A DNA stretch of 64,000 nt from Candidatus Poseidoniaceae archaeon (GTDB lineage Archaea > Thermoplasmatota > Poseidoniia > Poseidoniales > Poseidoniaceae): assembly GCA_943788655.1 (NCBI GenBank), contig CALSRB010000002.1, positions 200,989 to 264,988 on the forward strand, given 5' to 3'. A model generated the notes under the pieces. That model ran no database searches and had not been told where the DNA came from. It saw only the letters and a program-made list of their open reading frames with translations. Below, piece after piece: positions 249-61,900 of this stretch (positions within the stretch are counted from its first letter, which is position 1; every line of letters starts with the position of its first letter). A program made the position numbers and the translations under genes.

Positions 249-323
249 GCCACCGTGGCTTAGCGGTATAGCACCTCATTGGTAATGAGGAGGTCGCGAG
301 TTCAATTCTCGCCGGTGGCTCCA
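249..323 (+). tRNA. tRNA-Thr: tRNA-Thr (anticodon GGU) with genomically encoded CCA
   Basis: Cloverleaf read directly. The 7-bp acceptor stem is GCCACCG/CGGTGGC. The D-loop is AGCGGTA with A14, G18, G19 and A21. The anticodon stem is CCTCA/TGAGG with loop TTGGTAA, giving anticodon GGT. The variable loop is 5 nt. The T-arm is GCGAG-TTCAATT-CTCGC. The discriminator is U and CCA follows. Confidence 0.85.
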
Positions 324-365: not shown

Positions 366-1169
366 TCACTCTTCCGAATCAAGCGGGGTAAGTGCCATAA
401 TGTGCATTTTTAGATCTTCCATTTCGGCCTTCATGTCATGAAGGATTTTGGAAAAACCTTGGTCGTCCTCGTCTTCGATGTCGATGGCCGCCATTGTGTT
501 TGTGAACACTGCAATGAACATGTTGAGGAATGTGAACGAAGTGCTGATGATGTACGCCATGAAGAAACTCGCTGCCCACCAGCCCTGTTCCTCCACAATC
601 GCTCGTGCGATGCCATTTGACCAAGATTCGAGGGTCATGATTTGGAAAAGTGAGAAGAGGGAAAGACCAAGATTACCGAAGTACATCTCACCTGCATCCC
701 CTCCCTCAGCAAACAGCATCGTACCCATGACAGAGAAGACATACATGACGATGACTAGCAGCCAACTGATGGCCATAATGCCCCGTAATGACCTGACCAT
801 GGCTTCAACCATGCGTTGCATCTCTGGCATACTCGATACCAAACGAAGTGCCCGAAACACACGGAACACACGGAGTATGCTAAGTGGACCTGACGCTGGA
901 GCAATCGAAAACAGAACAATCAGGAAGTCAAAATTGTTCCACGAATCACGAAAAAATCGCGGGCCGTTCCCAACCAGTCGAATGGTCAATTCAAGGATGA
1001 AGATCCATAGAATAAGCGAGTCAAGCCCATCCAGCACTGAAAGAATCGAATGCGGGAAAGGAAATGTTTCGAGTCCGATGGTCACCGCGTTAATGACAAT
1101 AAGAGCAAGGATCGCATTTTGAAAGCGAGAACTCTCTGACAAATCATAGCACTTGGCACTGTACTTCAT
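366..1169 (-). CDS. Voltage-gated sodium channel of the bacterial NaChBac/NavBac type: six TM segments, an S4 voltage sensor with Arg at every third position (LRVFRVFRALRLV), and the selectivity filter FQIMTLESWS.
   Basis: ATG start at 1169. The sequence aligns by eye along its whole length with NaChBac. S1 is VINAVTIGLETFP against NALIVGIETYP. S3 contains the FFRDSWNNFDFLIV region. S4 has RxxRxxRxxR. The pore is LFQIMTLESWSNGIARAIV against LFQVVTLESWASGVMRPIF. The protein ends in an acidic cytoplasmic tail. Confidence 0.85.
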   Translation of the reverse strand: MKYSAKCYDLSESSRFQNAILALIVINAVTIGLETFPFPHSILSVLDGLDSLILWIFILELTIRLVGNGPRFFRDSWNNFDFLIVLFSIAPASGPLSILRVFRVFRALRLVSSMPEMQRMVEAMVRSLRGIMAISWLLVIVMYVFSVMGTMLFAEGGDAGEMYFGNLGLSLFSLFQIMTLESWSNGIARAIVEEQGWWAASFFMAYIISTSFTFLNMFIAVFTNTMAAIDIEDEDDQGFSKILHDMKAEMEDLKMHIMALTPLDSEE

Positions 1170-1190: not shown

Positions 1191-1199
1191 GTTTAAATT
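1191..1199 (-). promoter_or_regulatory. Putative TATA box (AATTTAAAC on the minus strand) for the Na-channel gene, implying a leaderless transcript
   Basis: The A/T-rich box lies about 22 to 30 nt upstream of the ATG at 1169, with no room for an SD-bearing leader. Confidence 0.4.
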
Positions 1200-1550
1200 C
1201 TTACCCCGGTCGAGTCGTCTCCTTGAAATGATTCCTCCCCTCATGAATCGCGGTCGTTGAAAGGGCCAAAACCGGAATGAAATTTATATCTCAACGGTGA
1301 GTTTCCAAACATGGCCCTTACCTTTATCGATGCCGTAACAATTCGTTGTGGTACGCACTCAGTGTTCGAAACAGCAAAAGATGAAACAATCGTCATGTGC
1401 TTGATTGAGCTACCTGTGGAACGCACAAAAATAAAAACTTGGACCACCTCACGTGGAAACTTCTATCGAAACACTCGAACCATCAGCAGTTTCGTGCCAT
1501 TTGTGTGACACCATGCGCACAGGTGGAGCGTACGCAGTCTCTCAAAAAAG

Positions 1551-1633
1551 CGCCGAGAGAGAGATTTGAACTCCCGAATCCAAAGGAAACACGATTTCCA
1601 GTCGCGCGCAATACCAGGCTATGCGATCTCGGC
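1551..1633 (-). tRNA. tRNA-Ser: tRNA-Ser (anticodon GGA), class II with a long variable arm, no encoded CCA, followed by a T6 run
   Basis: Read on the minus strand. The acceptor stem is GCCGAGA/TCTCGGC. The anticodon stem is CGCGA/TCGTG with loop CTGGAAA, giving anticodon GGA. The variable arm is 14 nt. The T-arm is GGGAG-TTCAAAT-CTCTC. The discriminator is G, and CTTTTTT follows at plus 1545..1550. The ORF-track entry 1439..1639 overlaps this tRNA and is spurious. Confidence 0.75.
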
Positions 1634-1697: not shown

Positions 1698-2909
1698 GTG
1701 GCCCGAGCAAAAGAACTCATAGGGAGACCTCTTAGCCAGTGCATGAGCGAGGAACATGGTCCTGACTCTGTGGCACTCTCAGAGGGGGATGTAGCCGCAG
1801 GAACCGACCATGGAGGCATGCCATTCCGCCTTCGTGATTTTTCACCACTCGTTTCTGTATCCAGCCTCCATGAACTCGCAGCACCTCTTGACAGGCTCCA
1901 GTGTGAAGTGCAATTTCAAACAAAGCTGGCTATTTTCGAATGGGAGCGAAAGCATTGGATCACAATGGCGCTTGGAGCAGTGGCATTCTTGCTGGGTTCA
2001 CTTTCTCCTGAGGTGATGAGTGGGGGCGACCCTATGCTCATCGGTGCCGAAGGGATTCAATCCGTATCCAGTGCTGTCTTCCTCCAAATGATTCTCTCAG
2101 TCATTCTTTGGGTTTGGTTTGCGGTTCAGATCTGGTCGCTCTTTCCAATCATGCGAACCCACGCAATATCTTTGCTCGCGTTCTGGAATCTATTCATCGT
2201 AGCACAATTGTTGTACCACAACGAAAACCCATCGTTCCCAATCGGAGTGAGCGCATCCCAAATGATGATGGGAACATTGGTGATCCTCGTCGTTCTCTTC
2301 TTCATTTACTTCTTTTGGAAAGCCGTGTCTGAAACACGAGACTTGCACATCGAGGAATACCACCTTCACGAAGACGTTCGATTGATGGAAATGGAAATGG
2401 CAGAGCATTCGCTGAGTGGTTGGGGCCTCATGTTGCTTACATGGACGGGAACTACAACGCTCTCATCATGGGCTGGGGCGCATTACATTGCCGATCAAAG
2501 CGTTGGCACAATCGGCACACTGCTCGTGCACATCGTGTTCGGACTGCTTTCTCTTCCTGTGCTGATGATGGTTGTTTGGTACCCACAACGGATGCTTGGC
2601 CAAGACACAGTGGTACGCACCAAAGCAGCCATAGCAGCAGATGCTGAACTCCTGATTCAAAGCGGAACCACCTCCGTTGCAAACCACGGTAAATCGGTCT
2701 GCCCGGAATGTAACGAAGAGGTGAGCATATCTCGAAACAAGAAGGGTGAAATCATGGTACCGTGCGTAACAGAAGGGTGCACTGGACGATCGGCTGTCGG
2801 CAAAGCGTGTCCAAAGTGCAAATCAACGACACCAACTCGATATGATTGTCCGTCATGTGGAATTAATGCACCCGTCCTCGATTTCCTGTCTGATGTGGAG
2901 GTGTGGTGA
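1698..2909 (+). CDS. Polytopic membrane protein of about 6 TM helices with two C-terminal cytoplasmic zinc ribbons (CPECN...C..C and CPKC...CPSC). Function unknown.
   Basis: Hydrophobic helices run from roughly aa 90 to 300. The Cys4 pairs lie in the last 75 aa. The stop TGA at 2907..2909 overlaps the sufS ATG. The true start may be internal, for example M at MALGAVAFLL; the N-terminal 85 aa are hydrophilic. Confidence 0.5.
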   Translation: MARAKELIGRPLSQCMSEEHGPDSVALSEGDVAAGTDHGGMPFRLRDFSPLVSVSSLHELAAPLDRLQCEVQFQTKLAIFEWERKHWITMALGAVAFLLGSLSPEVMSGGDPMLIGAEGIQSVSSAVFLQMILSVILWVWFAVQIWSLFPIMRTHAISLLAFWNLFIVAQLLYHNENPSFPIGVSASQMMMGTLVILVVLFFIYFFWKAVSETRDLHIEEYHLHEDVRLMEMEMAEHSLSGWGLMLLTWTGTTTLSSWAGAHYIADQSVGTIGTLLVHIVFGLLSLPVLMMVVWYPQRMLGQDTVVRTKAAIAADAELLIQSGTTSVANHGKSVCPECNEEVSISRNKKGEIMVPCVTEGCTGRSAVGKACPKCKSTTPTRYDCPSCGINAPVLDFLSDVEVW

Positions 2910-11658: not shown

Positions 11659-14600
11659 ATGACCAGCGAAACGCAGGACAGCGGGCGGAAATTCGCCTCG
11701 GCGCTGGTGCCTGTGTTGATGTTCATTCTAGCATCCCTATCACCCCTTGTTGTTGCTCCAAATTCAGACCTGAATCTCGATGAGGAACACACGAGCATGC
11801 AAACTGGAACAGGTGGAGCATGGACTGGACTTGAACAACCATGGGGTCAGTTTGGCCACACCCCCACTCACAACGGCAGCATGCCTGCTCACGGTCCTGA
11901 AGGCGGACCTGCGGACGGCTCCGTCGATGAGGTCACCGTCCTAGGGACCATCGAAAACCCAGGGGTCAACTGGGAGGCGCTCGATGATGGAAGCGACTTG
12001 TACGGCTCCATCATTGCAGACTTTTCAGCGAGCATCACTGCTCCAGAGGCAGCCAAAGAACGCTGCGCAGAAGATGATCTTTTCGCAGTTCTCGTTCACA
12101 ACGACGGGACAAACACCTACCTAAGCCTCGTTTCAGGGGATGATGCCAAATTAGCATGGGAAGTGAACATTGGGGAAACCAACGACGTACGTTCCACGCC
12201 CGCCATCGTTGATGTCAACCAAGACGGAAGGCAGGAAATCGTGCTCGTGTACGACACAGCCAACGCCCTCAACATCGAAGTATGGTCACCTGAACTCGAA
12301 TGCAGCGAATCAGGTTGGCAGAAATCAGGCCATGAAAATGAGCAATATTGGAGTTATTCCGACGTAGACTACCGAATTGGCATCCAAAGCCCACACGCAC
12401 CAACATCGCAGAGTAATCACCTCTCGATTACGCAACCCCTCGTTGCAGATCTCGCCCTCGATGGTACACCCGAATTGGTCCTAGCCGTCGTGGATGAAAC
12501 ATCGAACGACCCGACAGTCCTCTCATTTGGATTATCATCAAGCGTACCGAGTGATTCAAACTGGGAAGTGACCCTCGACCGAGGCACCCACCCTTCATCC
12601 CCTGCATGGGCGGCATTAGATTCAAGCACCACAGCAATTGTCCTGACAACCATTGATTCAAACGGTGGATCGATGTGGATTTGGAGAATTGATGGTGCCT
12701 CAGGTTCGCTGGATTGGGAACGTGTGGCAGTTCAAGGCACTGATTCTGATTCGGATGCACCACGTCTCCGCCTCCCTGGCCCTGTCATTGCACAGTTAGA
12801 CAATGATGATGCCCCTGAAATGATCCTCACTGTTCCAACCGATGCCAACGGGCGAACATCAGGCCTCGGAGCACGGTTCATAGGAATGGAGATGACATCG
12901 ACGACTGAAATTTTCAATTTCCGAGCACCAAATGGGTACGCCGATGCTGAACCCTTGGTGGTCGACACCACCGGTGACGGATTGCATGACCGTTTGTGTT
13001 GGGTGACATGGTACTCTGAATCACAGTTCTCGTTCAACCGTCAAGGCTTGACAGGTTGTCATGACATCAGCGACGAGACACCGCTCAAAGAATGGTCAAG
13101 AGATCTCCAACGGGGCGCTGGAAACGACAACGACGAGATTGCAGTCGCTTCGCCACTATGGCTAGATATCGATGGGAATGGAGCACCCGAATTGATTGTT
13201 CCTTTCGGCATGCGTCTCTACGGCTTTGATGGAGAGACCGGTGCATCTGCTGACATCAACGACGCATGGTCTTCGCCACTCGCCATGCCACATCGAGTGT
13301 GGGCGAGCCCTGCAGCAGCCGATATGGACGGAGACGGTACCATTGACATCCTCATTGGTGATACGTTGGTGTCTCACCTTGCTACCGACTTGGCCCCGCT
13401 TGCAGATGGTCGGGGCATTAGTTTCAATCCAGCAAGTCCCGATCCGGGAGAGACTGTCACCGTGACAGGGTCCTTTTCGAACGTTGGAACGCTGGACAAC
13501 GAAGACAATGTGGACGTTGTGTTGCGCATGAACGGGAATGAGTTGACTCGTGAGCGCTTTGCAGATGTTGAGCCAGTCTCGCCGAGTGGCGAAGGTGGTC
13601 CACTGACATTCAGCGCAACCTTCACTGCAGCATTAGGCGAACATGAATTCACGCTTGTCCTCGATGTGAATAATAACTTGACTGAGTCGAGAAAGGACAA
13701 CAACAACCAATCGGTTACCTTGACGATTGTTGACCCCTATGTTGCACGCATCGATCCGCCGCTTGACCCAATTCGAATCGCACCTGGCAATTCAGAGACG
13801 ATTCAAATCGCCCTCACGGCCACGGGTTCACGCACTGCTGATTGGACCATGTCTGTCGACGATACAGCCCTTCCTTCCGGATGGTCCTTTGCACCAGTTG
13901 CCGGTGCGGACCTCAACCCCAACCTTGCCCCAAGCACTCCGATGAGCATTGACTTTAGCGTAAGCATCCCTCCAACAGCCTTGGGCGACGAAAACTCCTA
14001 TGTCGACTTGTTGCTGACCCTCGACGATGATGAGGAAGTCACCTCAACACTGCGCCTCCCCATCGAAGTGCTACGGACCCGTGGCCTTTCAGTCGTTGGA
14101 CCTGCGGGGCTGAGCGAGTCGGACGGGATTGGACGCCCGAATCACGATGCAAAAGCATGGCTTGTCGTCGAAAACCTAGGAAACGCCCAAGAGAGCACGA
14201 CATCAATCGATTGGACTGCTCCATCGTGGGGCGGTACACCTGCGCTGTACACAGCTGATGGCACTGAAGTGTTCTCACTCACGCTTGCGCCCAATGAAGA
14301 TGTCGAGTTGTTCGCTACCCTTGGCGTCCCGGTGGGTACGACCCTTGGCACCTCAACAAGCAGCATGCTCACCGTTTGCATCGGCAGTGGTGAAGACACC
14401 CTTTGCCAGGACTTAGATGTCAATTTCCACGCAAGCGAACTTGCAGCATCACCCTCACACATACGCACCCTTCCCGACTCAACACTCGAGTGGACATTGG
14501 AAGCCACCCTGCCTTCGGACGGTCATCTCGAATGGAACATGGCCCAAGCTCAAATGATTCATACTGGCTGGGTATGGTCGGCAACTGGCGATGCTTCGGT

Positions 14601-17379
14601 CAATGGGACAACGCTGGAAATAGTTGGGACACCTGGTGAAACAGCATCAGCAGTTCTCCAACTGACGTTGCCTGTGAACGCAGTACCTCAGCGTCATGTT
14701 TTTGCAACCGCCGAGTCAACAGAACCCCACTATGAACTGAACATCACATTGCATGTATTGCAAGTGTTCCGTTCAGCAGCGACCGTTCTCGAACCAACCC
14801 CGCTTATTCTTGGCGATCCCGTCGATCTCAAGGTAGGTGAGACACAGTCTGTTCTTCTGCGACTGGAAAACCCAGGCAACGGCGAGGACACGTTCATTCT
14901 CACGGGCTCCGTTGTTGCTGATCCAAACATGACGCCACAACCAGAAGTCGAATTCACAATTTACAATCCAGAGCGAACCCTCGGCCCTCTTGCGACCACC
15001 ATCGCAACAGTTGATGTGATTCTTGACGAAGACACACCTGCTCTCAACCCGTTCCAGTTACAATTCACATGGACATCGCAGGGCGAGGGCAACATAGCAT
15101 CTGCGACAGCGTTGACCGTGCAGGCAGAGCCGGATTACCGTTGGGAAATTGACGAGATCGATATCGAGGCCACGGAGGTGGCACCAGGCGACGAAGTGAC
15201 CATTGATTTCAAAGTGAAAAACATAGGAAACACGCCCGACACGCTCACAGTCAACCCGTCGTTTACAGTGGCCCATGCTGGGAACGACACATCCACTTGG
15301 AGCGCTTCAAGCAACAGCAGTGAGCAAATTGATGTCAATGGAACACAATCGATGAGCATCGGATTCACCGTCCCACACAATGCTTGGTTCATGACCGAAG
15401 TGACGCTTTCGATGGACTTGTACTCAGGCAACGTCTATGTCAGCAATGAAACCGTTGATTTTTCCGTAGTTCACGCATCTTCTTGGCGATTCAACCTTTC
15501 GGACACCTCGCTCACGATCGCCCCAGGGGGGGAAAATCTCACTCTGAAAGTCGATCAGCTTGGAAACCACCCTGAGGCGCCCTGGTTCACAAAAGCCGGG
15601 CAAGGATGGCCGATTGATCTCCCAGAGAATGGCGAGACAGTCAACCCTGGTGAATCGACAACAATGACGGTGTTTGTCACCCCCCCTGAAGACGCATTGG
15701 CAGGCGAAGTCGGTGTGCTGCGCATTCGTATTTCAGACGCCAATGGAGCCGGGCAAATCGTGCAAGAAATTCCGGTCCGTGTTGGACAAGAGGCGAACAT
15801 CAGCGTTGAACATCGCGGTACGTGGAAGGTCAACGAAGACGGTGGTATGCCAACTGCGTGGCTCGAGAACAACGGCAATGATGTCGCAGTTGTGCAGATT
15901 TCTATTGAGGGATTACCAACTGGATGGTTGCTCAATGGTTCGAACCAAGTGGTCATTGCCCCGGGCCAACTTCTCGGACTTCCTCTGATGCTCACACCAG
16001 ATGCAACTTGGAACCTCCAACGATTCCTCGTGACCATCAAAGTGAACCATCCATCATTGGGTGAGATAGCACACGATTTGGAGATCGAGTACGGGTCTCA
16101 CACCTTCCATACGACCCCGGTCCATTTGGCAAAAGAAGGGACTCCAATTACCATTCAATTCGGACAACCAGTGGACAGCGGCCTCACAAGCAGCGACACA
16201 GTTGAATTTGGGGGACAGTCAATTTCGTTCACAATGGGAAGTGAGGAAAATGAACTGCTTCTCGAATCATCCACCGACAGCACCAACAGAATGTCCATCT
16301 TCACATCAGGGTACTCGCTCCCCAGCGTTGATGTTGATTGTGACCTTGACGAACAAGCGTTCAGCAACCTTGGAAGAATTGTTCTCACCGGAAGTGTCGG
16401 TGAATGTCAAATCACAGCATCGGACCAAGCACCGGTGAAAGCCACCATCCTGCTCATTTCCGACCAAGGCGACACGGTGCCGTTGCGATCATCAGGAATT
16501 TCACTGGGCAGTGGAGAAAACGGAACATATGACTTGAATGTCAGTTCGTGGACACCTGAGGCTGCCAAGATGAGCGTCACTGTGATGGTGGTCGACTCTC
16601 ATGGTCGAATTTTGAATGAAGACACCGTTGAAGTAGTGGCTCGAAAATCAGGTTGGAATGTTGGCATTTTCTCGTTCACGGCGGATGAAGAACTCAAAGT
16701 CAGTATTCTAAGAACATCGTATGACGTGCTCGAGGGTGTCAACTGCCGGGTGGAGATCAACACGGTCGACAACAGTCTGGATGAGCCGCTTGTTCGAGTG
16801 ATCGATATCGCAGAAGGTGATTTCCCGCCCGTTGTGATTATCCCAGCACCTTCCGACCTTGCAGACAATAAACAATTGAGAGCCACGCTGGGCTGCGATA
16901 CACCGTATGACGTCGATGATGATCAAAGCGACAATGAAGCGACCGCCCTTTACACCAAAGCACAACAACCAATTGTGGAAAGCAGTGAAATCGTCATTTC
17001 ACTCGTTGTAGCAAGCCTCTTGTTGGTCGTTGCGTACTTAGCCGGGCTGATGGGCACCAAACCGAAAACAGATTCGAAGCCTAAGGTGAAACCGCTTCCA
17101 ACCACCACTGCACAACCAAAGTCAGAACCGAGCCCAGTGGAAGAAGTCGACGAGGAAGAGGATGAATTCTCATTCGAACTGACAGAGGAACAAGTTACAG
17201 AAAGCATCGTCGCGGAAGAGCCACAACAAGTTGACACGGTGGAGATCATCGACCTTCCAGATGAAGAAGATGTTACACCATCCGGGCGTTTGGCATCATT
17301 GCGGGATGAAATGTCAGACAACCAACCCTCTGCAGAGGGAAGAGAAGACAGAATGCGCCGGTTCTTCGGTGACCAGTGA
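11659..17379 (+). CDS. Giant 1906-aa cell-surface protein. It has a signal peptide, FG-GAP/VCBS-type beta-propeller repeats, many CARDB/Ig-like beta-sandwich domains, a single C-terminal TM helix and an acidic cytoplasmic tail.
   Basis: The N-terminal hydrophobic signal is ALVPVLMFILASLSPLVVAP. Repeated D-x-D/N-x-D-G segments (VDVNQDGRQEIV, ADLALDGTPELV, DIDGNGAPELIV, ADMDGDGTIDIL) are typical of FG-GAP. CARDB-like NxGN/NVGT motifs and many N-x-S/T sequons are present. The C-terminal TM is VISLVVASLLLVVAYLAGL, followed by a Lys/Pro then Glu/Asp-rich tail. Confidence 0.7.
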   Translation: MTSETQDSGRKFASALVPVLMFILASLSPLVVAPNSDLNLDEEHTSMQTGTGGAWTGLEQPWGQFGHTPTHNGSMPAHGPEGGPADGSVDEVTVLGTIENPGVNWEALDDGSDLYGSIIADFSASITAPEAAKERCAEDDLFAVLVHNDGTNTYLSLVSGDDAKLAWEVNIGETNDVRSTPAIVDVNQDGRQEIVLVYDTANALNIEVWSPELECSESGWQKSGHENEQYWSYSDVDYRIGIQSPHAPTSQSNHLSITQPLVADLALDGTPELVLAVVDETSNDPTVLSFGLSSSVPSDSNWEVTLDRGTHPSSPAWAALDSSTTAIVLTTIDSNGGSMWIWRIDGASGSLDWERVAVQGTDSDSDAPRLRLPGPVIAQLDNDDAPEMILTVPTDANGRTSGLGARFIGMEMTSTTEIFNFRAPNGYADAEPLVVDTTGDGLHDRLCWVTWYSESQFSFNRQGLTGCHDISDETPLKEWSRDLQRGAGNDNDEIAVASPLWLDIDGNGAPELIVPFGMRLYGFDGETGASADINDAWSSPLAMPHRVWASPAAADMDGDGTIDILIGDTLVSHLATDLAPLADGRGISFNPASPDPGETVTVTGSFSNVGTLDNEDNVDVVLRMNGNELTRERFADVEPVSPSGEGGPLTFSATFTAALGEHEFTLVLDVNNNLTESRKDNNNQSVTLTIVDPYVARIDPPLDPIRIAPGNSETIQIALTATGSRTADWTMSVDDTALPSGWSFAPVAGADLNPNLAPSTPMSIDFSVSIPPTALGDENSYVDLLLTLDDDEEVTSTLRLPIEVLRTRGLSVVGPAGLSESDGIGRPNHDAKAWLVVENLGNAQESTTSIDWTAPSWGGTPALYTADGTEVFSLTLAPNEDVELFATLGVPVGTTLGTSTSSMLTVCIGSGEDTLCQDLDVNFHASELAASPSHIRTLPDSTLEWTLEATLPSDGHLEWNMAQAQMIHTGWVWSATGDASVNGTTLEIVGTPGETASAVLQLTLPVNAVPQRHVFATAESTEPHYELNITLHVLQVFRSAATVLEPTPLILGDPVDLKVGETQSVLLRLENPGNGEDTFILTGSVVADPNMTPQPEVEFTIYNPERTLGPLATTIATVDVILDEDTPALNPFQLQFTWTSQGEGNIASATALTVQAEPDYRWEIDEIDIEATEVAPGDEVTIDFKVKNIGNTPDTLTVNPSFTVAHAGNDTSTWSASSNSSEQIDVNGTQSMSIGFTVPHNAWFMTEVTLSMDLYSGNVYVSNETVDFSVVHASSWRFNLSDTSLTIAPGGENLTLKVDQLGNHPEAPWFTKAGQGWPIDLPENGETVNPGESTTMTVFVTPPEDALAGEVGVLRIRISDANGAGQIVQEIPVRVGQEANISVEHRGTWKVNEDGGMPTAWLENNGNDVAVVQISIEGLPTGWLLNGSNQVVIAPGQLLGLPLMLTPDATWNLQRFLVTIKVNHPSLGEIAHDLEIEYGSHTFHTTPVHLAKEGTPITIQFGQPVDSGLTSSDTVEFGGQSISFTMGSEENELLLESSTDSTNRMSIFTSGYSLPSVDVDCDLDEQAFSNLGRIVLTGSVGECQITASDQAPVKATILLISDQGDTVPLRSSGISLGSGENGTYDLNVSSWTPEAAKMSVTVMVVDSHGRILNEDTVEVVARKSGWNVGIFSFTADEELKVSILRTSYDVLEGVNCRVEINTVDNSLDEPLVRVIDIAEGDFPPVVIIPAPSDLADNKQLRATLGCDTPYDVDDDQSDNEATALYTKAQQPIVESSEIVISLVVASLLLVVAYLAGLMGTKPKTDSKPKVKPLPTTTAQPKSEPSPVEEVDEEEDEFSFELTEEQVTESIVAEEPQQVDTVEIIDLPDEEDVTPSGRLASLRDEMSDNQPSAEGREDRMRRFFGDQ

Positions 17380-19871: not shown

Positions 19872-20004
19872 GAAGAGGGGCACAGTGACTACCTTTCCCG
19901 TGGACTCTCGTACCACAGTAATGGGAGAGACGCAGGCAGGCTTGACTTCTGGGTTCGGAATGAGACCAGGTAAACACTACCGCTGTGACCGTGCACCCAT
20001 CTTC
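19872..20004 (-). rRNA. rrf: 5S ribosomal RNA
   Basis: The minus strand contains CCGAACCCAGAAGTCAAGCCTGCC (the loop C/helix III signature) and a terminal helix I, GAAGATGGGTGC paired with GTGCCCCTCTTC. Ends are approximate to within about 8 nt. Confidence 0.8.
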
Positions 20005-20071: not shown

Positions 20072-20122
20072 CGAAGAGCACTCGAGGTGCGGATACATAC
20101 GAAAAAAGATGCTCGAACGTTA

Positions 20123-22958
<2,836 letters not shown>

Positions 22959-22997
22959 ATGTATGTTATCACACACCATGCGAGTAACCCTTCGGTA

Positions 22998-28015: not shown

Positions 28016-31000
28016 TCATTGACCATTGCGTTGGAGCCACTGGTGACCGTAGTGTTGCCATTGTTCCATCGTCCAGCCGTCAGGTAAACCCGACGGTGGG
28101 AGCGGTGGTCCCGTTGCAGCAGTTACCGGAGCAGGTGTAGGAACGGGGGCAGGAAGTGGCGTGGGCACTGGAGCCGGTATTTGCGGAAGGGCCTTTGGAG
28201 GAAGACCAGCCGGAGGCAAACCGGCAGGGGGGAGACCTCGAGGCAATGCGCCAGGGGTTGGCAGACCACGTGGCACAGCACCGGGAGGAAGTCCTTGAGG
28301 CACGACGGCAGGTGCAGGTGGGAGGTTGAGGGATTGAGCCAGAGCCGCTGCAATTTCATCCTGCGATACTTCTGCACTTGCGATTTCATTCACAGCGTGG
28401 CCAATGTCAAGTGCTTCATCGCGCCGTGTTCCAAGGTGATCTGGATTGACGAATGCATCAGGGGCCACAAGTTCACTTCCATCATCCTCAAGTTCGCCAG
28501 TGCGCTTCATTCTCAACGCAAGCACCGCTCCTGCGGCAATGAGCACTCCGATTAACGGAATTGAGACATAGAGAGGTAATACGGCGAGCAAACCACCATT
28601 GGTGTCGACGGAGGAAACAGTCGTTTCAATCGAGAATGTCCCCACGGTTTGTTCCTGTGAGGTCACAGAAATTTGTGTGAGCATGAGGCCTTTTGATGCT
28701 GATGCCTTCGGGGTGACGGTCACTTCAACGGTGAGGCTTTCACCAACGCCGAGACTCCCAATGGTGGTTTCTGAAAAAGAGACGCTCCAATCAGTGGAGG
28801 CGTTTCCGTCAGCGTCCAGCACAAGGGCGCTAAGTGCGCCAGTGATCGGTAAGTTGCCATCATTCCGTATAACAATGGATTGGGTTGCGCCCTCTTCCTT
28901 GGCAATGCTTCTGAACGGGCGAATGCTATCATCAGCAACCGACATGTTGGCGAATTGAGACGGCAAGACAGCGACGTCAATACGCACTGATGAGTTGACG
29001 AGGCGCCCGTTGTTTCCCCCGGTCACTGTGATTAAGAGGTCAAAGACTTGTGAGTCTGCAGCGGCATTTGCCGGTGGAATCAAGCCAAATCGAACGGTTT
29101 TTTCTTCCCGTGGTTCAAGGTAAGTGATCGGGTTAGCAAAGCCGACGACCCATCCATCAGGAGCGAGGCCATTGCTCCAAGCAAGCGTCAAAGGAGCATT
29201 GCCGGTGTTCGTCACGTTGAAATTTCCGTAGCTGAATGTGGAACCAATCACGGTTTCGATAACATCCCCTTCTGGACCTTGGAGGTTCACGGCGAGTTCA
29301 TCCCTTACTTTGAGCACTGTTGTGTTTGAGATGAATACCTGTGCGCTCAATTCTGTACGTATGACGAAACTGTTGGTATCGCCTTCTTCCGCTGCACCAG
29401 GCACGCCAATCACGAAGTTCACATCGATGGATTGCCCGGGGCCAAGAGCAATGGAAACTTGACGGGCATCCGTCTGGACTCCAGTGGTGACTTCAATCGG
29501 CCATGTTGGGTTGGAGGGCTGGATTTTGACATTCATGTCGAGGTCTGTGTTTCCGGTGTTCTCAACGGTCAGGTTCATGCTGATTTGTTCCCCACTGTCG
29601 ACAAGAACTTCTCGGTTTTTGGAAGATGGTCCGATTGGCCCGATGTCGTCGTACAAATCAGCACCAAAGGACTGCTGAGGGAGAACTGTGATGGTCGCAG
29701 ATTCACTGAAGTTCATCGAAACATCCGTGCTAGATGTCACATAGCATGTCACAGTATCTGTTGAACCTGTAAGCGGAACGCCGTTCGCCACCGGTGGCAC
29801 AAAAAGATCAATTTTAATCGCCCTGTATTCGCGAATGCCAATGGGTTCAATTTCTAATGTCGATGAGTTTGTGTCCTTGAGCATGATCTGCCAGCGGTTC
29901 TCAGATTCGCAGCTGATTGAGTATTGTGCGGGCGAGTTACCAATGTTCGCAACAGAAATTCTGAAGCCGGCAGAGTCACCGGGTTCAGCCTCGAGCCCTT
30001 CTGTTCCAAGCGGCGTAATGAGGACCTCGTCCAATTGGTCGATTGTAAATGTGAGTCGCTGAGTGTGAGCAACGGTAGGATTGTCTTGGTACCGTGCGGT
30101 CACATCCACCACAAATGTTCCAGAACGGGCATACCTTGGCGAAGCAGGATCGCTCAGGTCCGCATCCTCGTCCTCAAGGTGGATTGTAAGCAACTGGAAA
30201 TCACCAGCTTCTCCTTCCCCTTGAACTGTATATGGCCCCATTTGAGAGACACTCTTTGACCATGTATCCTCTGGCGAAAGGAGGAAATCAGGTCGACCTG
30301 GTTGTGGCACCTGCACCCCGGTGACACTCAGTGTGACATTTTTCTCTCCGGTACCCTCGTGGAGAATGTGAATGGGGATATCAATACCAGTTTGGTTTCG
30401 AACATCGAACGTTCGTATGGCCGCCGCTTCACGATCTTCAGAAGTGACCGGTACCGTACCATCGTCGTTGAGTACGACAACACGAACACCGAGAGCTGTG
30501 ACTTCAATGTCCTGTTCCCAAATGTTATTGTCGATACCAGTGGTCCCATCGTTCATTTCAGCAACCTGATCATTGGTATCGATTCGCAAGCGCATGCTGT
30601 GCGTCCCCGTGGTCAGGAATTGATGTTGAATCAAAAGTGAATCGATGGTTCCTGCAGCCAATGCAGAGCGGTCACCTTCAAACAGCGTTTCTCCAGCAGT
30701 GAGGTCTTCAAAGATGACACGGAAAGAGCCGGTGGCGAGGGTACCTTGGTTGATCCATCCAATTCGGATGGCAATCAAATCATTGCGAAGGGGTTCGGGG
30801 GAGGAAGGGATGATGCTCCCGTCGTACAGAGCAAGGTCGGCTTGGGGCGTCGGGGTTGCATCGGCAGTGACCACAAGTCCGAAACTTTGGGTCGTTCCGC
30901 CACGATGGAGAACCTTAACGAGCCATTGACCCGAGGTTGAAAGGGTACCAGGGGCGACCTTTATGCGCTCCACATTGTTGACTGAATCGCTTGTTTGCCC

Positions 31001-33001
31001 TGATGTGGTAAAGCCGTTTGCGAAATTATTGCCATACCATTCGTTTCCAGATGGGTCAACGAGAACAAGGTCGAGGTTGTTAACAAGACGAGATTCACTC
31101 TGGGCGGCATTTGCAGAACCTGCTACATCCGACCAAGCCAGTGTGATATCAATCCCGTGCGATGCGTCTAACTCGAACGCATAGAGGAGACCAAAGCCCG
31201 CATCCAGGGGAGTATTATCGTCCATGAACGTTGCAAGGGCAGAAGTGCTTGGCGAGGACGCATCCCAAACAGGTAAGACGGTGCGATCGAGGTCGATTTG
31301 ACCCCAGCCCTCAGCGTCGTTGGGAATATCAGGTGCGCCAAGATCTCGAGCACCGTTAATCATGGCCGCTTTCACGAGCGAGCCTGATGGTGCTGAGATC
31401 CCGACCTGTTCTCGAATGAACTCTCGGGTCAATGCTGCGACGCCACCGGCGACAGCGGTTGCTTGGGAAGTACCCGAAAGCAGAGTGTAGACATCTTCCC
31501 CATTGCTGTGAGTTTCAGTGGAGCATGCGGTTCCCGGCGAGGTTTTTGCTTCCTCAGCGGCCCCTGAGCACACATCGACCCCGGGCGCCACAAGGTCGGG
31601 CTTGATTCGTCCATCGAGGCTAGGTCCATTGCTTGAGAATGAGGCCACGCTTCCTGAGGTCGAACCCGTTCCTGAAGCACCAATGGCAAGCACGTTCTTG
31701 GCCGTGGATGGAGGCGTGATTTGTGATGCACCTTGTGAACCACGGTCACCAACAGCGAACAAGGGGAGCATGGAAGGCTTGTCGTGAACGAAGATGTCCA
31801 CTGAACGAGAATCGGCAGAGTACTGACCATAGTTCCCATTCGCCCCCCAAGCGTTGATAGCGATCCTGGCAGTCTTCTGTTCCGCATCCCTCAACAAATC
31901 ATAGATTGAACCGATTCGTCCGAAGACACCTGTCGGGTCATGCTCAAGAGCGTACATCACAAGGTCAGCATTTGGTGCCATGCCCGTAGCGTTCCCGTTT
32001 GATTGCCCATCCCCAATGGCAGACACTGCAATGTGAGTGCCGTGTCCGGTGTTGGAATCGGCAGGAGATGAATCGAGGCCAAATTGAGTGTAGACGCCTG
32101 CAACTCGTCCTATCAAGTCAGGGTGATCCAAATCAAGTCCAGTGTCGGCAATGGCAATCATTTCGCCCGACCCATCGAGGGTGAAGGTTGCATTTGCCCG
32201 CACATCGATGATGCCGGATGCTGCGGCGGCGGCGGCGTTATGCAATGAAAAGTCAGTGGTTGGTTCAATCCATATGATCCGTCCATCGTTTGCAACAGCA
32301 GCGATGAATGAGGGGGCCATTGACGGAGGAAGTTCGACTTCACACACACCAACGCCACACCACGCATTGTGGGCCCCCATTCGAATCAAATCCAAACTCA
32401 ACGCTTCAAACCCACCGTAGGAAAGATCCGCTGCTGGAATCAATGCCAGTCGTTGGGAGGCGTCACCTTCAAGCAGGGAAGCATCGATTCGCCAGCCTGG
32501 GTGTTGGGCGCCAACCCAGCGAACATCGTCATCGACAAGAAGAGCTCGAATTGAATCCACTGGAGGATCCGCCAGTCGGACCAGCCAGGCCTCATCACTG
32601 ATGAAATCGAGTGGAGTAAAGTCATGACGTTCGATGAGTTCCTGCAAAATCATGCCATCATGAGCGTGGAGTTGAACTATCGCAAGCCCGGTCGTTGTGA
32701 AATCGTTTGCGTTGAACAAACCAATTCCTGGTGTTGGATGTTCATGCAAGGTCGGGTCGAAACTTCCGATGTTCATGTTGAGAACGCCAGTCGATGGCTG
32801 AAGAGGAACTTGAATCCGCTCGGTTGGTGTTGCAACGTGCCACATCGAGGCGGCGAGTGCCAAGCGTTCGGCTTCGGACATCACGGTGTTTGTTGGTTCA
32901 TTGATTGATTCAACAGATTCCGAACTCACTGCAAGCATCGGTGAAAGCGATGTCAGGACAAGCAAAACAAGCATCAGTAACGGTCGGCGTAGTGCTTGCA
33001 T
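28016..33001 (-). CDS. Giant membrane-anchored subtilisin-like serine protease (S8) of about 1660 aa. It has a signal peptide, a propeptide, the catalytic domain, multiple Ig/CARDB-like domains, one TM helix, and a 165-aa Pro-rich cytoplasmic tail ending in a W-rich motif.
   Basis: The Asp, His and Ser catalytic triad motifs are IADTGLDLDHPDL, HGTHIAVSAIG and LSGTSQATAVAGGVAAL. The signal is MQALRRPLLMLVLLVLTSL; the track start at 33076 is 25 codons upstream. The TM is LLAVLPLYVSIPLIGVLIAAGAVLAL. The tail contains PRGLP and PAGLPP repeats and ends ...PPLPPSGLPDGWTMEQWQHYGHQWLQRNGQ. Confidence 0.8.
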   Translation of the reverse strand: MQALRRPLLMLVLLVLTSLSPMLAVSSESVESINEPTNTVMSEAERLALAASMWHVATPTERIQVPLQPSTGVLNMNIGSFDPTLHEHPTPGIGLFNANDFTTTGLAIVQLHAHDGMILQELIERHDFTPLDFISDEAWLVRLADPPVDSIRALLVDDDVRWVGAQHPGWRIDASLLEGDASQRLALIPAADLSYGGFEALSLDLIRMGAHNAWCGVGVCEVELPPSMAPSFIAAVANDGRIIWIEPTTDFSLHNAAAAAASGIIDVRANATFTLDGSGEMIAIADTGLDLDHPDLIGRVAGVYTQFGLDSSPADSNTGHGTHIAVSAIGDGQSNGNATGMAPNADLVMYALEHDPTGVFGRIGSIYDLLRDAEQKTARIAINAWGANGNYGQYSADSRSVDIFVHDKPSMLPLFAVGDRGSQGASQITPPSTAKNVLAIGASGTGSTSGSVASFSSNGPSLDGRIKPDLVAPGVDVCSGAAEEAKTSPGTACSTETHSNGEDVYTLLSGTSQATAVAGGVAALTREFIREQVGISAPSGSLVKAAMINGARDLGAPDIPNDAEGWGQIDLDRTVLPVWDASSPSTSALATFMDDNTPLDAGFGLLYAFELDASHGIDITLAWSDVAGSANAAQSESRLVNNLDLVLVDPSGNEWYGNNFANGFTTSGQTSDSVNNVERIKVAPGTLSTSGQWLVKVLHRGGTTQSFGLVVTADATPTPQADLALYDGSIIPSSPEPLRNDLIAIRIGWINQGTLATGSFRVIFEDLTAGETLFEGDRSALAAGTIDSLLIQHQFLTTGTHSMRLRIDTNDQVAEMNDGTTGIDNNIWEQDIEVTALGVRVVVLNDDGTVPVTSEDREAAAIRTFDVRNQTGIDIPIHILHEGTGEKNVTLSVTGVQVPQPGRPDFLLSPEDTWSKSVSQMGPYTVQGEGEAGDFQLLTIHLEDEDADLSDPASPRYARSGTFVVDVTARYQDNPTVAHTQRLTFTIDQLDEVLITPLGTEGLEAEPGDSAGFRISVANIGNSPAQYSISCESENRWQIMLKDTNSSTLEIEPIGIREYRAIKIDLFVPPVANGVPLTGSTDTVTCYVTSSTDVSMNFSESATITVLPQQSFGADLYDDIGPIGPSSKNREVLVDSGEQISMNLTVENTGNTDLDMNVKIQPSNPTWPIEVTTGVQTDARQVSIALGPGQSIDVNFVIGVPGAAEEGDTNSFVIRTELSAQVFISNTTVLKVRDELAVNLQGPEGDVIETVIGSTFSYGNFNVTNTGNAPLTLAWSNGLAPDGWVVGFANPITYLEPREEKTVRFGLIPPANAAADSQVFDLLITVTGGNNGRLVNSSVRIDVAVLPSQFANMSVADDSIRPFRSIAKEEGATQSIVIRNDGNLPITGALSALVLDADGNASTDWSVSFSETTIGSLGVGESLTVEVTVTPKASASKGLMLTQISVTSQEQTVGTFSIETTVSSVDTNGGLLAVLPLYVSIPLIGVLIAAGAVLALRMKRTGELEDDGSELVAPDAFVNPDHLGTRRDEALDIGHAVNEIASAEVSQDEIAAALAQSLNLPPAPAVVPQGLPPGAVPRGLPTPGALPRGLPPAGLPPAGLPPKALPQIPAPVPTPLPAPVPTPAPVTAATGPPLPPSGLPDGWTMEQWQHYGHQWLQRNGQ

Positions 33002-33076
33002 GCCTTTCCCACTTGTCGGGCCTTTTTGAAAACGCCCCTTGCTTGTGCCCCTACGGGGCACGATCGATTCACTCAA

Positions 33077-58970: not shown

Positions 58971-61900
58971 TCACTTCTTCATTGATTCGACGTACTGCCA
59001 ACCAAAGTGATTCCACTGGTCTTGAGTCCAACCTTCAGGAAGGCCTGTTGGTGGGAGTGGAGGTGGGGGTCGTTGCCCTGGAGCAAGAGGCTGTGCTGGC
59101 GCTGGAGCGACGGGAGCAAGTGGAGCAGCAGGTTGAGCCTGTGTTGGTGGTGCATGTGTCGCATCTGCGAATTCTGGAAGGACCTTTGCAGTGTTCATAT
59201 CTTCCACTACAGATTGGGTTTCATCGGTGAGGCCACCCTCAAGACCTTCTGTACGGATTCTGCGGTTGAGAACCAACATCCACATGGCCAAGGAAAGTGA
59301 TACCAAAGCGACAATGTAGAGCACAATAGCGAAGGTACTTTCCGAGGCTTGTTGTGCGAGTGCGTCACCATCACGAACCGTTTCTCCCTTGACAATCAGG
59401 GGGTCAACAGTACGACGGTCCATTTCGACTTCATCAACCAAAACCAACAAACGATATTCGACGCTTTCACCCTCGCCGACATCTGCGACGGTGGCCATCT
59501 GTGCTTCTGTCAAACCACCTGCAGTGGCGACGAGATCGACGCGTACGACTTCTGCCCAGAACCCGCCCTCTACGGCCCGCTGGAGCACGTAGGCGACGTC
59601 ACCCTTGCCACCTTGATTCAAAACCTGAACTTCCAGATAGACAGCTTCTCCTTCAACTGGCGAAGGATTGTTCCATGAGAGGACCGTGTCGTCATGACTC
59701 AAATCGAGTGATGGGCCAAGCAGTGCCAGAGGCCACGATGCGATTGGTGTCGAAAGTGAGTTGTCGAGCGTATCGAAAGGATTGCCTGCAGCGTCTGAGC
59801 CTGAGACCCAGACATCAACCACGTAGGATGGAAGCAGAACTGTTGCCCCGGCGTCTGTTAGGTCGAGGTGGCCGGTCCAGAAGAATTGCTCACCAAATGG
59901 TGTTGTGTCGGGAAGTGGGAGGCTGCCTCGAGAGATTTCTGCCTCTCCTGCACGAACTCTGTAATGGAGAACCGCCGGTTCATCAAGATCGAATCCATAA
60001 TCATCCAGGGTCTCAAGCATCACGAGCAAGTCGCCAGCGTCACCAATTGAGAGAGGGGAATCGGAGGAGACTTCGTTGAGTGCAATGGCTGAGATGGTTG
60101 GGCGTGAACTGTCGACTGCAAGTCGAACGCGAGGAATAATGGATGTTTCATCCATGGCAATTCCCGGCAAGTCATCCAGACCCAATCGAAGGTCTAAGTG
60201 CCCAGACCGAACCGATGGAATCAACAAATCAAGGCTAAATTCACCAGCATCTCGTGTCGATGTTCGCCATGTGTAGTCATAATCACCAAACACGACGTCA
60301 AACGCACCAGCAGGAGCAGGCGTGTCATCTTCGGAAAACAGAACGCGACCGTTCACCCTCAAGGCTTGTCCTGCACCGATGAGCGTCTCGCTGAATTCAT
60401 TGTTGTAATGGTTGGTTCCATCCCTCAATTCTACGGCACGAATGTGTCCATCCATTGTATCGAATCGGAAGTCATTGTCCAAACTCCATGCGTCATTCCC
60501 AAGGCCAGCCTTTGCTTCGAAACATGGCGTTTCTTCGCCCACATTGCACGGCAAATCGGTTACCAAAATCTTCGGAATGATTCTTGACTCCCCATTGGTG
60601 TCAAACACTTCAGGGAAGGTCCAAGTCAATTGGAACCTCGCAAGGATTTTGATGATGCTGTTGTTCGCCTCATCAATCGATACAGAGGAGTAGAGGTTCG
60701 AAACAGCGATGCTGCCAGATCCGGCCTCCATGACGGCGGTTGGCATTCCGTTTTGGTCAGCCATGAGTGAGATAAAGATCGAAGTATCATCGTCATCGTA
60801 ATCGCCACCAAGCGCTAACTGAACATATTGGATATCTTGCCATCCATTCCGGTCTGAAAGAACAATTTGAGCTGAGTACGGAATACCAGGGTGCAGCGGT
60901 GATTTGTCATCGTGACCAAGAATGGTGGAATTATCCAAATCCAATTGCGGTTCAAATTCAACACGGATTTTGTAAGTGCCCAGGTCGTTGTCCCAATCTG
61001 GAACGGTTTCACCAGGAGCATAGCCACATGGAATGGTCGAGTCTGGGCACACTGGGCCCTTCCCCATCGCCACAGCATTGTCTTGTGCATCCTTTCCGGT
61101 CACATAGTAGGAGACTTGTTGGCCGTGGCCAAGCATTGAATCGTCAATCAATCCCTGGAAAATATTCAGGCCGCCGGGTTGTATTTCTGGAGAAGAGAGT
61201 GTTTTTATCTCATATTCGTCTTCATTCGGCAGGCCATCAAAGTTGTAATCGCTGCAGCCAATAGCGGAACTTGCTTTGCATCCAATCCAGTAGTGCAATG
61301 AAATTTGATTCGGTGGATCGACTGAATCCTGGATGGCAACACTGAGAGATTGTCCGCCAGGAGCGGGTGGGCCCGCGTGGCGCTCTTCACCGTCACCGGG
61401 GGTTGAGGACAGAACGAGCGGTGAATTCCCATCAAGAATCAAACGCAGGGTATTGTAACCCGGATTGGTATAGGTGGAACCGTTTGGAAGGTCGCTTGGA
61501 ATCACATAGAATATCATTCCACCAGGTGAAGACTCAAGCGGTGCAGTGAAGGTCATGTTGTACTCACCAAACGCCGGATTCTGCTCGACTGCCAGCACGA
61601 CAGGTTCGCCGATTGGGTCTCCGTCATAGGTGACGTTTTGTCCGATAATGGTCATGTTGAATTGACCAGCAAGCGGTGAAAGTTGGGAATCTTGGAAATG
61701 AATCCCACCAGTGAATGTGAGGTTGAAACCGCCACGTACCCAATCCTGATTGTAGAGTTCCCTCCCAGTCTCTTCATAGACACGAAGGCCATCGAGTTGG
61801 ATATCATTTTCCACAACCAAATCAAGCGAACTTGTCTCCCATGCAGAGACAGAAAGACCGAGATCATCCTCTACCGAGATGAGCGCCTCGGTTCCAGATT

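Follow-up and report, generated by a model that had tools for sequence, protein, structure and literature searches.

The 64,000-nt stretch of DNA analysed here (hereafter the window; assembly GCA_943788655.1, contig CALSRB010000002.1, positions 200,989-264,988 of the forward strand) comes from a Candidatus Poseidoniaceae archaeon and contains, between two tRNA genes, a gene for a voltage-gated cation channel, which is the subject of this study. The open reading frame (ORF), which matches Pfam Ion_trans, occupies positions 366-1169 on the reverse strand, starts with ATG, ends with a stop codon at 366-368 and encodes 267 amino acids (aa). Beyond this stop codon, at a distance of 42 nt and convergent with the channel gene, lies tRNA-Thr(GGT) (249-323, forward strand; ARAGORN; Rfam 70.8 bits), and upstream, on the same strand as the channel gene, lies tRNA-Ser(GGA) (1550-1633, reverse strand; ARAGORN; Rfam 50.1 bits), with exactly 380 nt (1170-1549) separating the channel start codon from it. 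The window is archaeal core chromosome: it carries archaeal housekeeping genes (eIF-6, the archaeal D-aminoacyl-tRNA deacylase DTD2, PheRS-beta, GluRS and RNase HII), further housekeeping genes for adenylate kinase, GAPDH and DnaJ, and an archaeal 23S rRNA gene (20103-22961, reverse strand) that adjoins the 5S rRNA gene (19877-19996, reverse strand), and no mobile-element genes were found in the window region. Syntenic relatives are labelled Candidatus Poseidoniales (locus L001) and Poseidoniaceae (P0016) in the databases.

The encoded protein is a one-domain, six-transmembrane (6TM) voltage-gated channel of the BacNav family and belongs to its NavAb-like group. Pfam Ion_trans covers residues 15-229 (E = 3.1e-45), and among the solved structures that matched over the full length NavMs scored best (5hvx, residues 4-235, E = 1.9e-53), followed by NavCt (4bgn, 1e-46), NaChBac (6vwx, residues 5-253, E = 8.7e-45) and NavAb (3rvy, 1.9e-42). 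Over the core, the channel is 45% identical to NavMs, 39% to NaChBac and 38% to NavAb, the reference sequences of which we confirmed to be identical to PDB entries 5hvx, 6vwx and 3rvy, respectively. An AlphaFold model built on 26 members of the archaeal clade described below (mean predicted local distance difference test, pLDDT, 81.3) contains the six predicted transmembrane helices, with S1-S4, the S4-S5 linker, S5, the pore helices P1 and P2, S6 and a C-terminal helix (residues 239-260) all represented. When this model was compared with the PDB by Foldseek, the top 50 matches were all NavMs, NavAb or CavAb (E = 1e-13 to 1e-10; template-modelling scores of 0.65-0.81; root-mean-square deviation of about 3.2 Å over 219 columns).

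Conservation of the functional residues was counted across 81 sequences of the archaeal clade, with numbering mapped by alignment to NavAb. The voltage-sensor domain S1-S4 (about residues 14-113; positions 831-1130, reverse strand) comprises model helices 14-33, 40-74, 76-88 and 95-113. Its charge-transfer centre, F57, E60 and D81, corresponds to NavAb F56, E59 and D80 and is invariant at all three positions; the outer counter-charges E34 and D50 correspond to NavAb E32 and N49, and R64 to NavAb R63. The S4 gating charges R100, R103, R106 and R109 (RVFRVFRALR; 843-872, reverse strand) align with NavAb R99, R102, R105 and R108, the first, second and fourth of them being invariant and the third (R106) always R or K. 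The selectivity filter T179-L-E181-S182-W183-S184-N185 (TLESWSN; 615-635, reverse strand) is read directly from the DNA, the reverse complement of which is ACC CTC GAA TCT TGG TCA AAT, and aligns with NavAb T175-M181; T179 and W183 do not vary in the clade. Likewise invariant is N216 (NavAb N211) in the pore-lining helix S6 (about residues 198-234; 468-578, reverse strand; model helix 198-234), and the NavAb gate position I217 is taken by F222, a phenylalanine present in 80 of the 81 sequences. The C-terminal domain (369-485, reverse strand), delimited by alignment and model, consists of an acidic neck (DIEDEDDQG) and the helix at residues 239-260; D230 and E249 are nearly invariant, and model confidence is low at residues 233-237. 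Its layout parallels that of NavMs, NavAb and NaChBac in the alignment, and as modelled it would resemble the neck plus coiled coil of BacNavs. The initial annotation of this DNA, made from the letters alone, had described an ORF between two tRNA genes that aligns over its whole length with NaChBac and possesses an S4 arginine ladder and a TLESWS filter, all of which was borne out.

Published work on one-domain channels provides rules by which the filter can be interpreted. Na+ selectivity results from a Glu at the high-field-strength (HFS) site whose neighbour at HFS+1 is small and neutral, a single Ser-to-Asp exchange at HFS+1 raises Ca2+ permeability about 100-fold, and TLDDWSD is fully Ca2+-selective (PMC10120453; PMC4692491); Asp at the HFS site itself tends towards non-selectivity (PMC10120453). 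Since the channel has E181 at the HFS site, the neutral S182 at HFS+1 and no additional acidic filter residue, it is predicted to be Na+-selective, in line with the initial annotation, which had taken the protein for a sodium channel. That the protein is instead a Ca2+-conducting or non-selective cation channel serving Ca2+ signalling strikes us as unlikely, although the family offers precedents: NaChBac was first predicted to be a Ca2+ channel (PMC4453477), and native members include the non-selective NsvBa and the Ca2+-selective CavMr. Besides, position 185 is Asn as opposed to Met in NavAb, and sister subclades have the filters TLDSWS(D/E), TLDAWAD and TLESWSD, that is, extra acidic residues or the HFS Asp which the published rules tie to non-selectivity (PMC10120453). 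However, the E181/S182 pattern is the same as in the Na+-selective NavAb, NavMs and NaChBac, no extra acidic residue accompanies it, and engineered BacNavs require an Asp at HFS+1 to become Ca2+-selective (PMC10120453).

In a homolog search, the channel headed an unbroken series of identities from 99% to about 40-42%, the named members of which are Poseidoniaceae or Thermoplasmatota archaea. Named bacteria started at about 44% identity in the same search, and among the matches listed the closest labelled bacterial sequences are 38-49% identical to the channel. A scan of GTDB species representatives returned at least nine archaeal and at least 71 bacterial loci. The database cluster that is 99% identical to the channel comprises 114 member sequences, and the family as a whole amounts to 1055 clusters at E <= 1e-30 in a search against all cluster representatives, in which eukaryotic four-domain channels, with the scores of four repeats added up, prevailed. 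In three neighbour-joining trees (100 bootstraps each, about 215 columns), a single clade united the channel with all archaeal-labelled loci listed and with P0001-P0077 (about 76 metagenome clusters), and had no bacterial-labelled member. Its bootstrap values were 100, 85 and 94, the last in a tree that was rooted on eukaryotic channel domains and included the curated references of Shimomura et al. (2020), where the clade held 80 sequences; identity within it falls to about 40%. In that family tree, the AnclNav and Bacillus groups branch first, and the archaeal clade then joins the NavAb-like channels with a bootstrap of 77. The initial annotation had expected phylogeny to place the gene among bacterial sequences, and had named a deep archaeal-specific clade with conserved synteny as the outcome that would speak against its proposal; the latter is largely what we found. 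With nearly all of the remaining family being bacterial, the most economical and a plausible origin of the clade would be that the gene passed once, long ago, from a bacterium into an archaeon, before the Poseidoniales diversified.

Members of this clade had been deposited before. The source data for Figure 1 of Shimomura et al. (2020; eLife 9:e52828) contain one 'Candidatus Poseidoniales archaeon' and three 'Euryarchaeota archaeon' sequences with a TLESWSN filter, and relatives already carry database labels such as 'voltage-gated sodium channel' and 'ion transporter [Candidatus Poseidoniaceae archaeon]'. With databases and one published sequence collection thus already containing the clade, the remark in the initial annotation that there are few archaeal examples is outdated. 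The three of these four published sequences that we put in the tree belong to the archaeal clade (bootstrap 94) and share with the channel the filter FQ(I/V)MTLESWSNG and the S6 motif TFTFLNMF(I/V)A(I/V)FTNT, but form a basal subclade together with L002-L012, 46-50% identical to the channel, whose own subclade (49-64 clusters) is absent from the published set. We found no publication linking Poseidoniales or Marine Group II to BacNav channels. Our analysis contributes the extent and support of the clade, evidence from empty sites and multiple loci that the gene behaves as an accessory one, and the range of filters in the sister subclades.

Compared with characterised BacNavs, the channel is closest to NavMs of Magnetococcus marinus and NavAb of Arcobacter butzleri, with which it shares the build of one 6TM domain in ~270 aa, the four arginines of S4, the F/E/D charge-transfer centre, the TLESWS filter, the S6 Asn and a C-terminal neck plus helix, as well as the tree grouping at bootstrap 77. 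Unlike them, it has N185 rather than Met after the filter and Phe rather than Ile at the gate position, and insertions lengthen its S5-P1 turret by three residues and its P2-S6 loop by one. Further differences are its distinctive S6 motif TSFTFLNMFIAVFTNTMA and DIEDEDD neck, its archaeal host and its separate, well-supported clade. Hallmarks of this clade are Asn (or D/H/E) at the NavAb M181 position, the gate Phe, a longer turret and a DIEDxD neck. NaChBac and NavBP, of the Bacillus group, have the same architecture and the TLESW filter core (39% core identity for NaChBac), whereas the filter of that group is TLESWAS and its branch lies outside the NavAb-like channels plus archaeal clade. The archaeal members explicitly noted in the literature, from Methanolobus and Nitrososphaerales, concern the AnclNav group (CavMr, NavPp). 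These, too, are one-domain voltage-gated channels that occur in archaea, but AnclNav filters read TLEGWVD, TLEDWTD and similar, their P2-S6 loop is longer, and they are 32-36% identical to the channel. Membership of the channel in AnclNav was considered and is ruled out by the TLESWSN filter and by the AnclNav references branching outside.

The tRNA genes on either side of the channel gene, as classical integration hot spots, had been taken in the initial annotation as compatible with horizontal acquisition. A recent acquisition from a bacterium at such a hot spot would fit with the 3' ends of both flanking tRNA genes facing the channel gene, with the polymorphism of the site (nine related loci are empty, see below), with a family that is predominantly bacterial and with homologs being carried by large plasmids in Pseudoalteromonas and marine bacteria of the Roseobacter group. 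We nevertheless hold it to be very improbable. The labelled bacteria, at 38-49% identity among the matches listed, stand against an archaeal series running from 99% to about 40%, and the archaeal clade has bootstrap values of 94-100 in two of the trees (85 in the third). The synonymous codon use of the channel gene, which the initial annotation had proposed to compare with that of the flanking genes, is native (log-likelihood z +0.42, rank 25 of 37 in the window; GC content at third codon positions, z +1.24); only its total GC content is low (z -2.55), as the gene encodes a membrane protein rich in Phe, Ile, Leu and Met. Relative to the 91% identical ortholog at L092, the ratio of nonsynonymous to synonymous substitution rates (dN/dS) is 0.056, and dS is 0.85 as against 0.69 and 0.75 for two syntenic neighbours, which indicates strong purifying selection and divergence in step with the surroundings. 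There is no integrase or recombinase gene in or beside the insert, which consists of the channel gene and a 65-aa orphan ORF alone and is surrounded by genes for a hypothetical membrane protein, an Aminotran_5 protein and a subtilase. Nor did we find an att-like direct repeat of the 3' end of either tRNA, the sole tRNA-related pair being generic T-arm similarity. As for viral carriers, a scan of IMG/VR with clade motifs gave no relative, and a phage collection gave one weak partial match (34% identity over 57% of the query). Finally, the gene arrangement is kept down to 76% channel identity, and the tree of the channels follows that of the backbone genes.

The bacterial plasmid homologs are worth recording in their own right. 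In all, 40 plasmid records matched, Leisingera and Pseudoalteromonas among them, 41-43% identical to the channel; the replicons measure 100-180 kb, are mostly non-mobilisable and belong to marine Roseobacter-group bacteria and Pseudoalteromonas.

Comparison of the locus among relatives revealed a recurring backbone, Aminotran_5 / ~390-aa hypothetical protein / tRNA-Ser / channel / tRNA-Thr / (RtcB, AlaRS), which was seen in L092 (91% channel identity) and L081 (81%), and L001 (76%) retains tRNA-Ser beside the channel. We then searched metagenome contigs for the exact 29-nt core of tRNA-Ser and obtained 21 loci, all on the same backbone: 10 are occupied, with a channel of 76-99.6% identity between the tRNA genes, nine are empty, with the two tRNA genes about 100 nt apart and no channel, and two are cut. 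The arrangement in sister genomes, for which a check had been suggested alongside the import proposal, is conserved down to 76% channel identity. tRNA-Ser is kept in L001, L081, L092 and L097-L117, and tRNA-Thr is 100% identical beside occupied and empty sites alike. Trees of two flanking proteins split these loci into two groups, each with 100% bootstrap: all five loci of Group II are empty, and Group I contains every occupied site and two empty ones. Within the latter, the empty locus L097 is sister to the occupied L001/L100 (100% bootstrap). The subgroups of the channel tree are the same as those of the backbone tree.

In the simplest history, the gene would have arrived once at the tRNA site, in the common ancestor of Group I, and would then have descended vertically and been lost at least once; its place between the two tRNA genes would thereby date back to the ancestor shared by the related genomes. 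An alternative that deserves serious attention, even though we rate its chances as clearly below even, is that the channel was ancestral at this site in all lineages sharing the backbone and was lost repeatedly. The empty L097 inside the occupied group amounts to at least one well-supported loss, and a pseudogenised copy elsewhere (L095/L096, see below) implies that loss is common. However, with all five Group II loci empty, one insertion ancestral to the occupied group needs fewer events; channels from a DPRP/MGMT context nest among those of the tRNA site, which shows that relocation happens; and no deletion scar was found in the empty sites, where shuffled sequence aligned just as well.

In other Poseidoniales lineages, the channel gene occupies four other housekeeping contexts, namely DPRP/UvrB/MGMT/UbiA/UbiD (78% identity to the channel), S3Ae/PNP/DHFR/ThyA (67%), a site with a convergent tRNA-Arg(CCT) gene 2 nt past the channel stop (L086, 5001-5889; 65%) and ferredoxin/MGMT (59%). 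Taken together, the empty sites and several loci mark the channel gene as accessory and prone to gain, loss and relocation within the Poseidoniales. The hot-spot proposal holds in part, in that the site is polymorphic, but the movement is within archaea. The tRNA-Arg(CCT) of L086 echoes the tRNA-Thr of the window, which could be a coincidence or reflect a shared 3'-end or terminator arrangement.

Some genomes have lost the channel gene, and disrupted copies exist in a related lineage, where the half-size homologs L095 and L096 (P0066 cluster, context as in L083) show a frameshift besides a stop in frame at codon 8, which points either to a pseudogene carried by that population or to assembly errors at low coverage. 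By extension, the window ORF might be taken for a decaying or non-functional relic. This reading is the least credible of those weighed here, given that the ORF is intact and full length, that every functional residue is conserved, that dN/dS is 0.056, that a conserved promoter-like box lies upstream and that a 99%-identical cluster of 114 sequences exists. Two further half-size homologs, L093 and L094, contain a run of N that marks a scaffold gap, together with duplicated sequence. Six clusters of ~152 aa (P0061, P0064, P0065, P0066, P0072 and P0089), which had looked like pore-only channels, were rejected as gene-calling artefacts caused by this gap or by the stop and frameshift of L095/L096.

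The 380-nt spacer upstream of the channel gene (1170-1549) had been called gene-less in the initial annotation. Its length is as stated, but it does hold a gene-like element, a small ORF of 65 aa (1311-1508, forward strand) that is divergent from the channel gene and conserved in relatives. By comparison among these, the spacer is a variable, decaying intergenic region with a promoter-like block and the small ORF. It ranges from 74 to about 585 nt, with 76 nt in L001 and L100, 137 in L105, 220 in L103, 279 in L117, 353-354 in L092 and L099, 380 in the window and L101, and 560-585 in L113 and L107; these differences arose through independent nested deletions of a longer ancestral form. The block GGGGTAAGAATTTA(A/T)ACAAGCG is kept in eight of the eight closest relatives while the spacer around it varies. 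Its TTTAAA box (1192-1197, reverse strand), 23-28 nt upstream of the ATG, is a likely archaeal TATA element, and at this distance the mRNA would be leaderless or nearly so. A scan for sigma-70 promoters and terminators gave counts at the shuffled expectation, the bacterial model being uninformative for an archaeon. Rfam detected nothing besides the two tRNAs; sub-threshold matches to 'Plastid-ycf2' (antisense of a tRNA) and snR76 were discarded as noise.

The small ORF is conserved over its C-terminal 52 aa. In close relatives it takes forms of 110-148 aa, and over the shared 52 C-terminal codons its dN/dS is 0.10-0.22. We recovered only 16 homologs (P0320-P0335), all from the channel-locus lineage and without a Pfam match. 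In all probability this is a genuine orphan gene, of which the window carries a form truncated through an internal deletion. The spacer is neither inert filler nor evidence for a genomic island.

Overall, we assign a probability of about 80% to the reading that the gene is a resident, selected gene of the Poseidoniales encoding the subunit of a homotetrameric, depolarisation-activated, Na+-selective BacNav from an archaea-specific clade. In the mechanism we propose, depolarisation would move the S4 arginines R100, R103, R106 and R109 through the charge-transfer centre F57, E60 and D81, and the S4-S5 linker would then open the S6 bundle (N216, with F222 at the gate position), allowing hydrated Na+ to pass through the TLESWSN filter, where the four E181 side chains form a ring; the tetramer would be held together by its acidic necks and C-terminal helices. 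The only BacNav with a tested role is NavBP of the alkaliphilic Bacillus pseudofirmus, which functions in pH homeostasis (Na+ re-entry), motility and chemotaxis (PMC4453477). By analogy, and as a speculation, the archaeal channel might provide controlled Na+ re-entry and fast depolarisation in seawater, which is high in Na+, for Na+-cycle and pH homeostasis or for behavioural signalling.

Several observations weigh against this reading or parts of it. All trees are neighbour-joining trees of about 215 columns with weak deep nodes, and monophyly of the bacterial NavAb-like channels reaches a bootstrap of only 26%, at which 'sister' and 'nested' are indistinguishable, so that the archaeal clade may be either sister to the bacterial NavAb-like channels or nested in them. 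Archaeal genome sampling is incomplete (at least nine archaeal loci), which the metagenome search for the tRNA-Ser core offsets in part, the middle subclade P0048-P0069 has as its one hint of an archaeal origin an archaeal-type helix-turn-helix (HTH) neighbour (PF24266), and the direction of the ancient transfer is deduced from taxon distribution alone. The empty sites and the four alternative loci mean that inheritance has not been stable across the order. At the protein level, N185 in place of NavAb M181, the gate Phe in place of Ile and the clade insertions in the S5-P1 and P2-S6 loops depart from the characterised channels, and we found no paper with a functional characterisation of an archaeal BacNav or with electrophysiology for a member of the clade. 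As to its role, no gene in the window ties the channel to motility, rhodopsin or Na+/H+ antiport.

Some neighbouring features of the window complete the picture. A 403-aa multi-pass membrane protein (1698-2909, forward strand) is a conserved neighbour of the channel locus; it has a C-terminal CxxC cluster resembling a zinc ribbon, lacks a Pfam match and evolves fast, with 65% identity in a relative whose Aminotran_5 protein is 84% identical. Three giant ORFs of 1650-1906 aa (11659-17379, forward; 28016-33076 and 58971-63923, reverse) presumably encode proteins that this planktonic, protein-degrading archaeon secretes or displays on its surface, two of them having CARDB, FG-GAP or subtilase domains and one lacking any Pfam match. 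No 16S rRNA gene is present in the 64-kb window, and the rRNA operon appears to be unlinked, with the 16S gene apart from 23S/5S. Unlinked rRNA operons are typical of Thermoplasmatota.

Turning to the wider family, the sister subclades (P0048-P0069; loci L089, L090 and L091) display the filters TLESWSD, TLDSWS(D/E), TLDSWA(E/D) and TLDAWAD, which by the published rules would be shifted towards non-selective or Ca2+-permeable conduction. The channels at L089-L091 are neighboured by TPR proteins, a subtilase and an archaeal-type HTH regulator (PF24266). More tentatively than any of the conclusions above on the gene itself, and with considerable doubt, the Poseidoniales channels could be regarded as a distinct archaeal BacNav subfamily with a diversified selectivity of its own. 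If so, a group that ranks among the most abundant archaea of the ocean would use voltage-gated cation channels with a tunable ion preference, the channel would be an accessory trait swapped among genomes, and the subfamily would offer a natural series for Na+/Ca2+ selectivity and a first handle on archaeal electrical signalling.

In summary, the structures of eukaryotic Nav and Cav channels are modelled mainly on BacNavs, the cellular role of which is nevertheless known for essentially one alkaliphilic Bacillus. The present work adds to the BacNavs a large, conserved and strongly selected archaeal branch in Marine Group II, a dominant group among the heterotrophs of the surface ocean. Its accessory distribution, with presence and absence in close relatives and residence at several loci, suggests a niche-dependent benefit, and the filter variants of the sister subclades may be viewed as natural experiments on ion selectivity, the window gene itself being predicted to encode a canonical Na+ channel.

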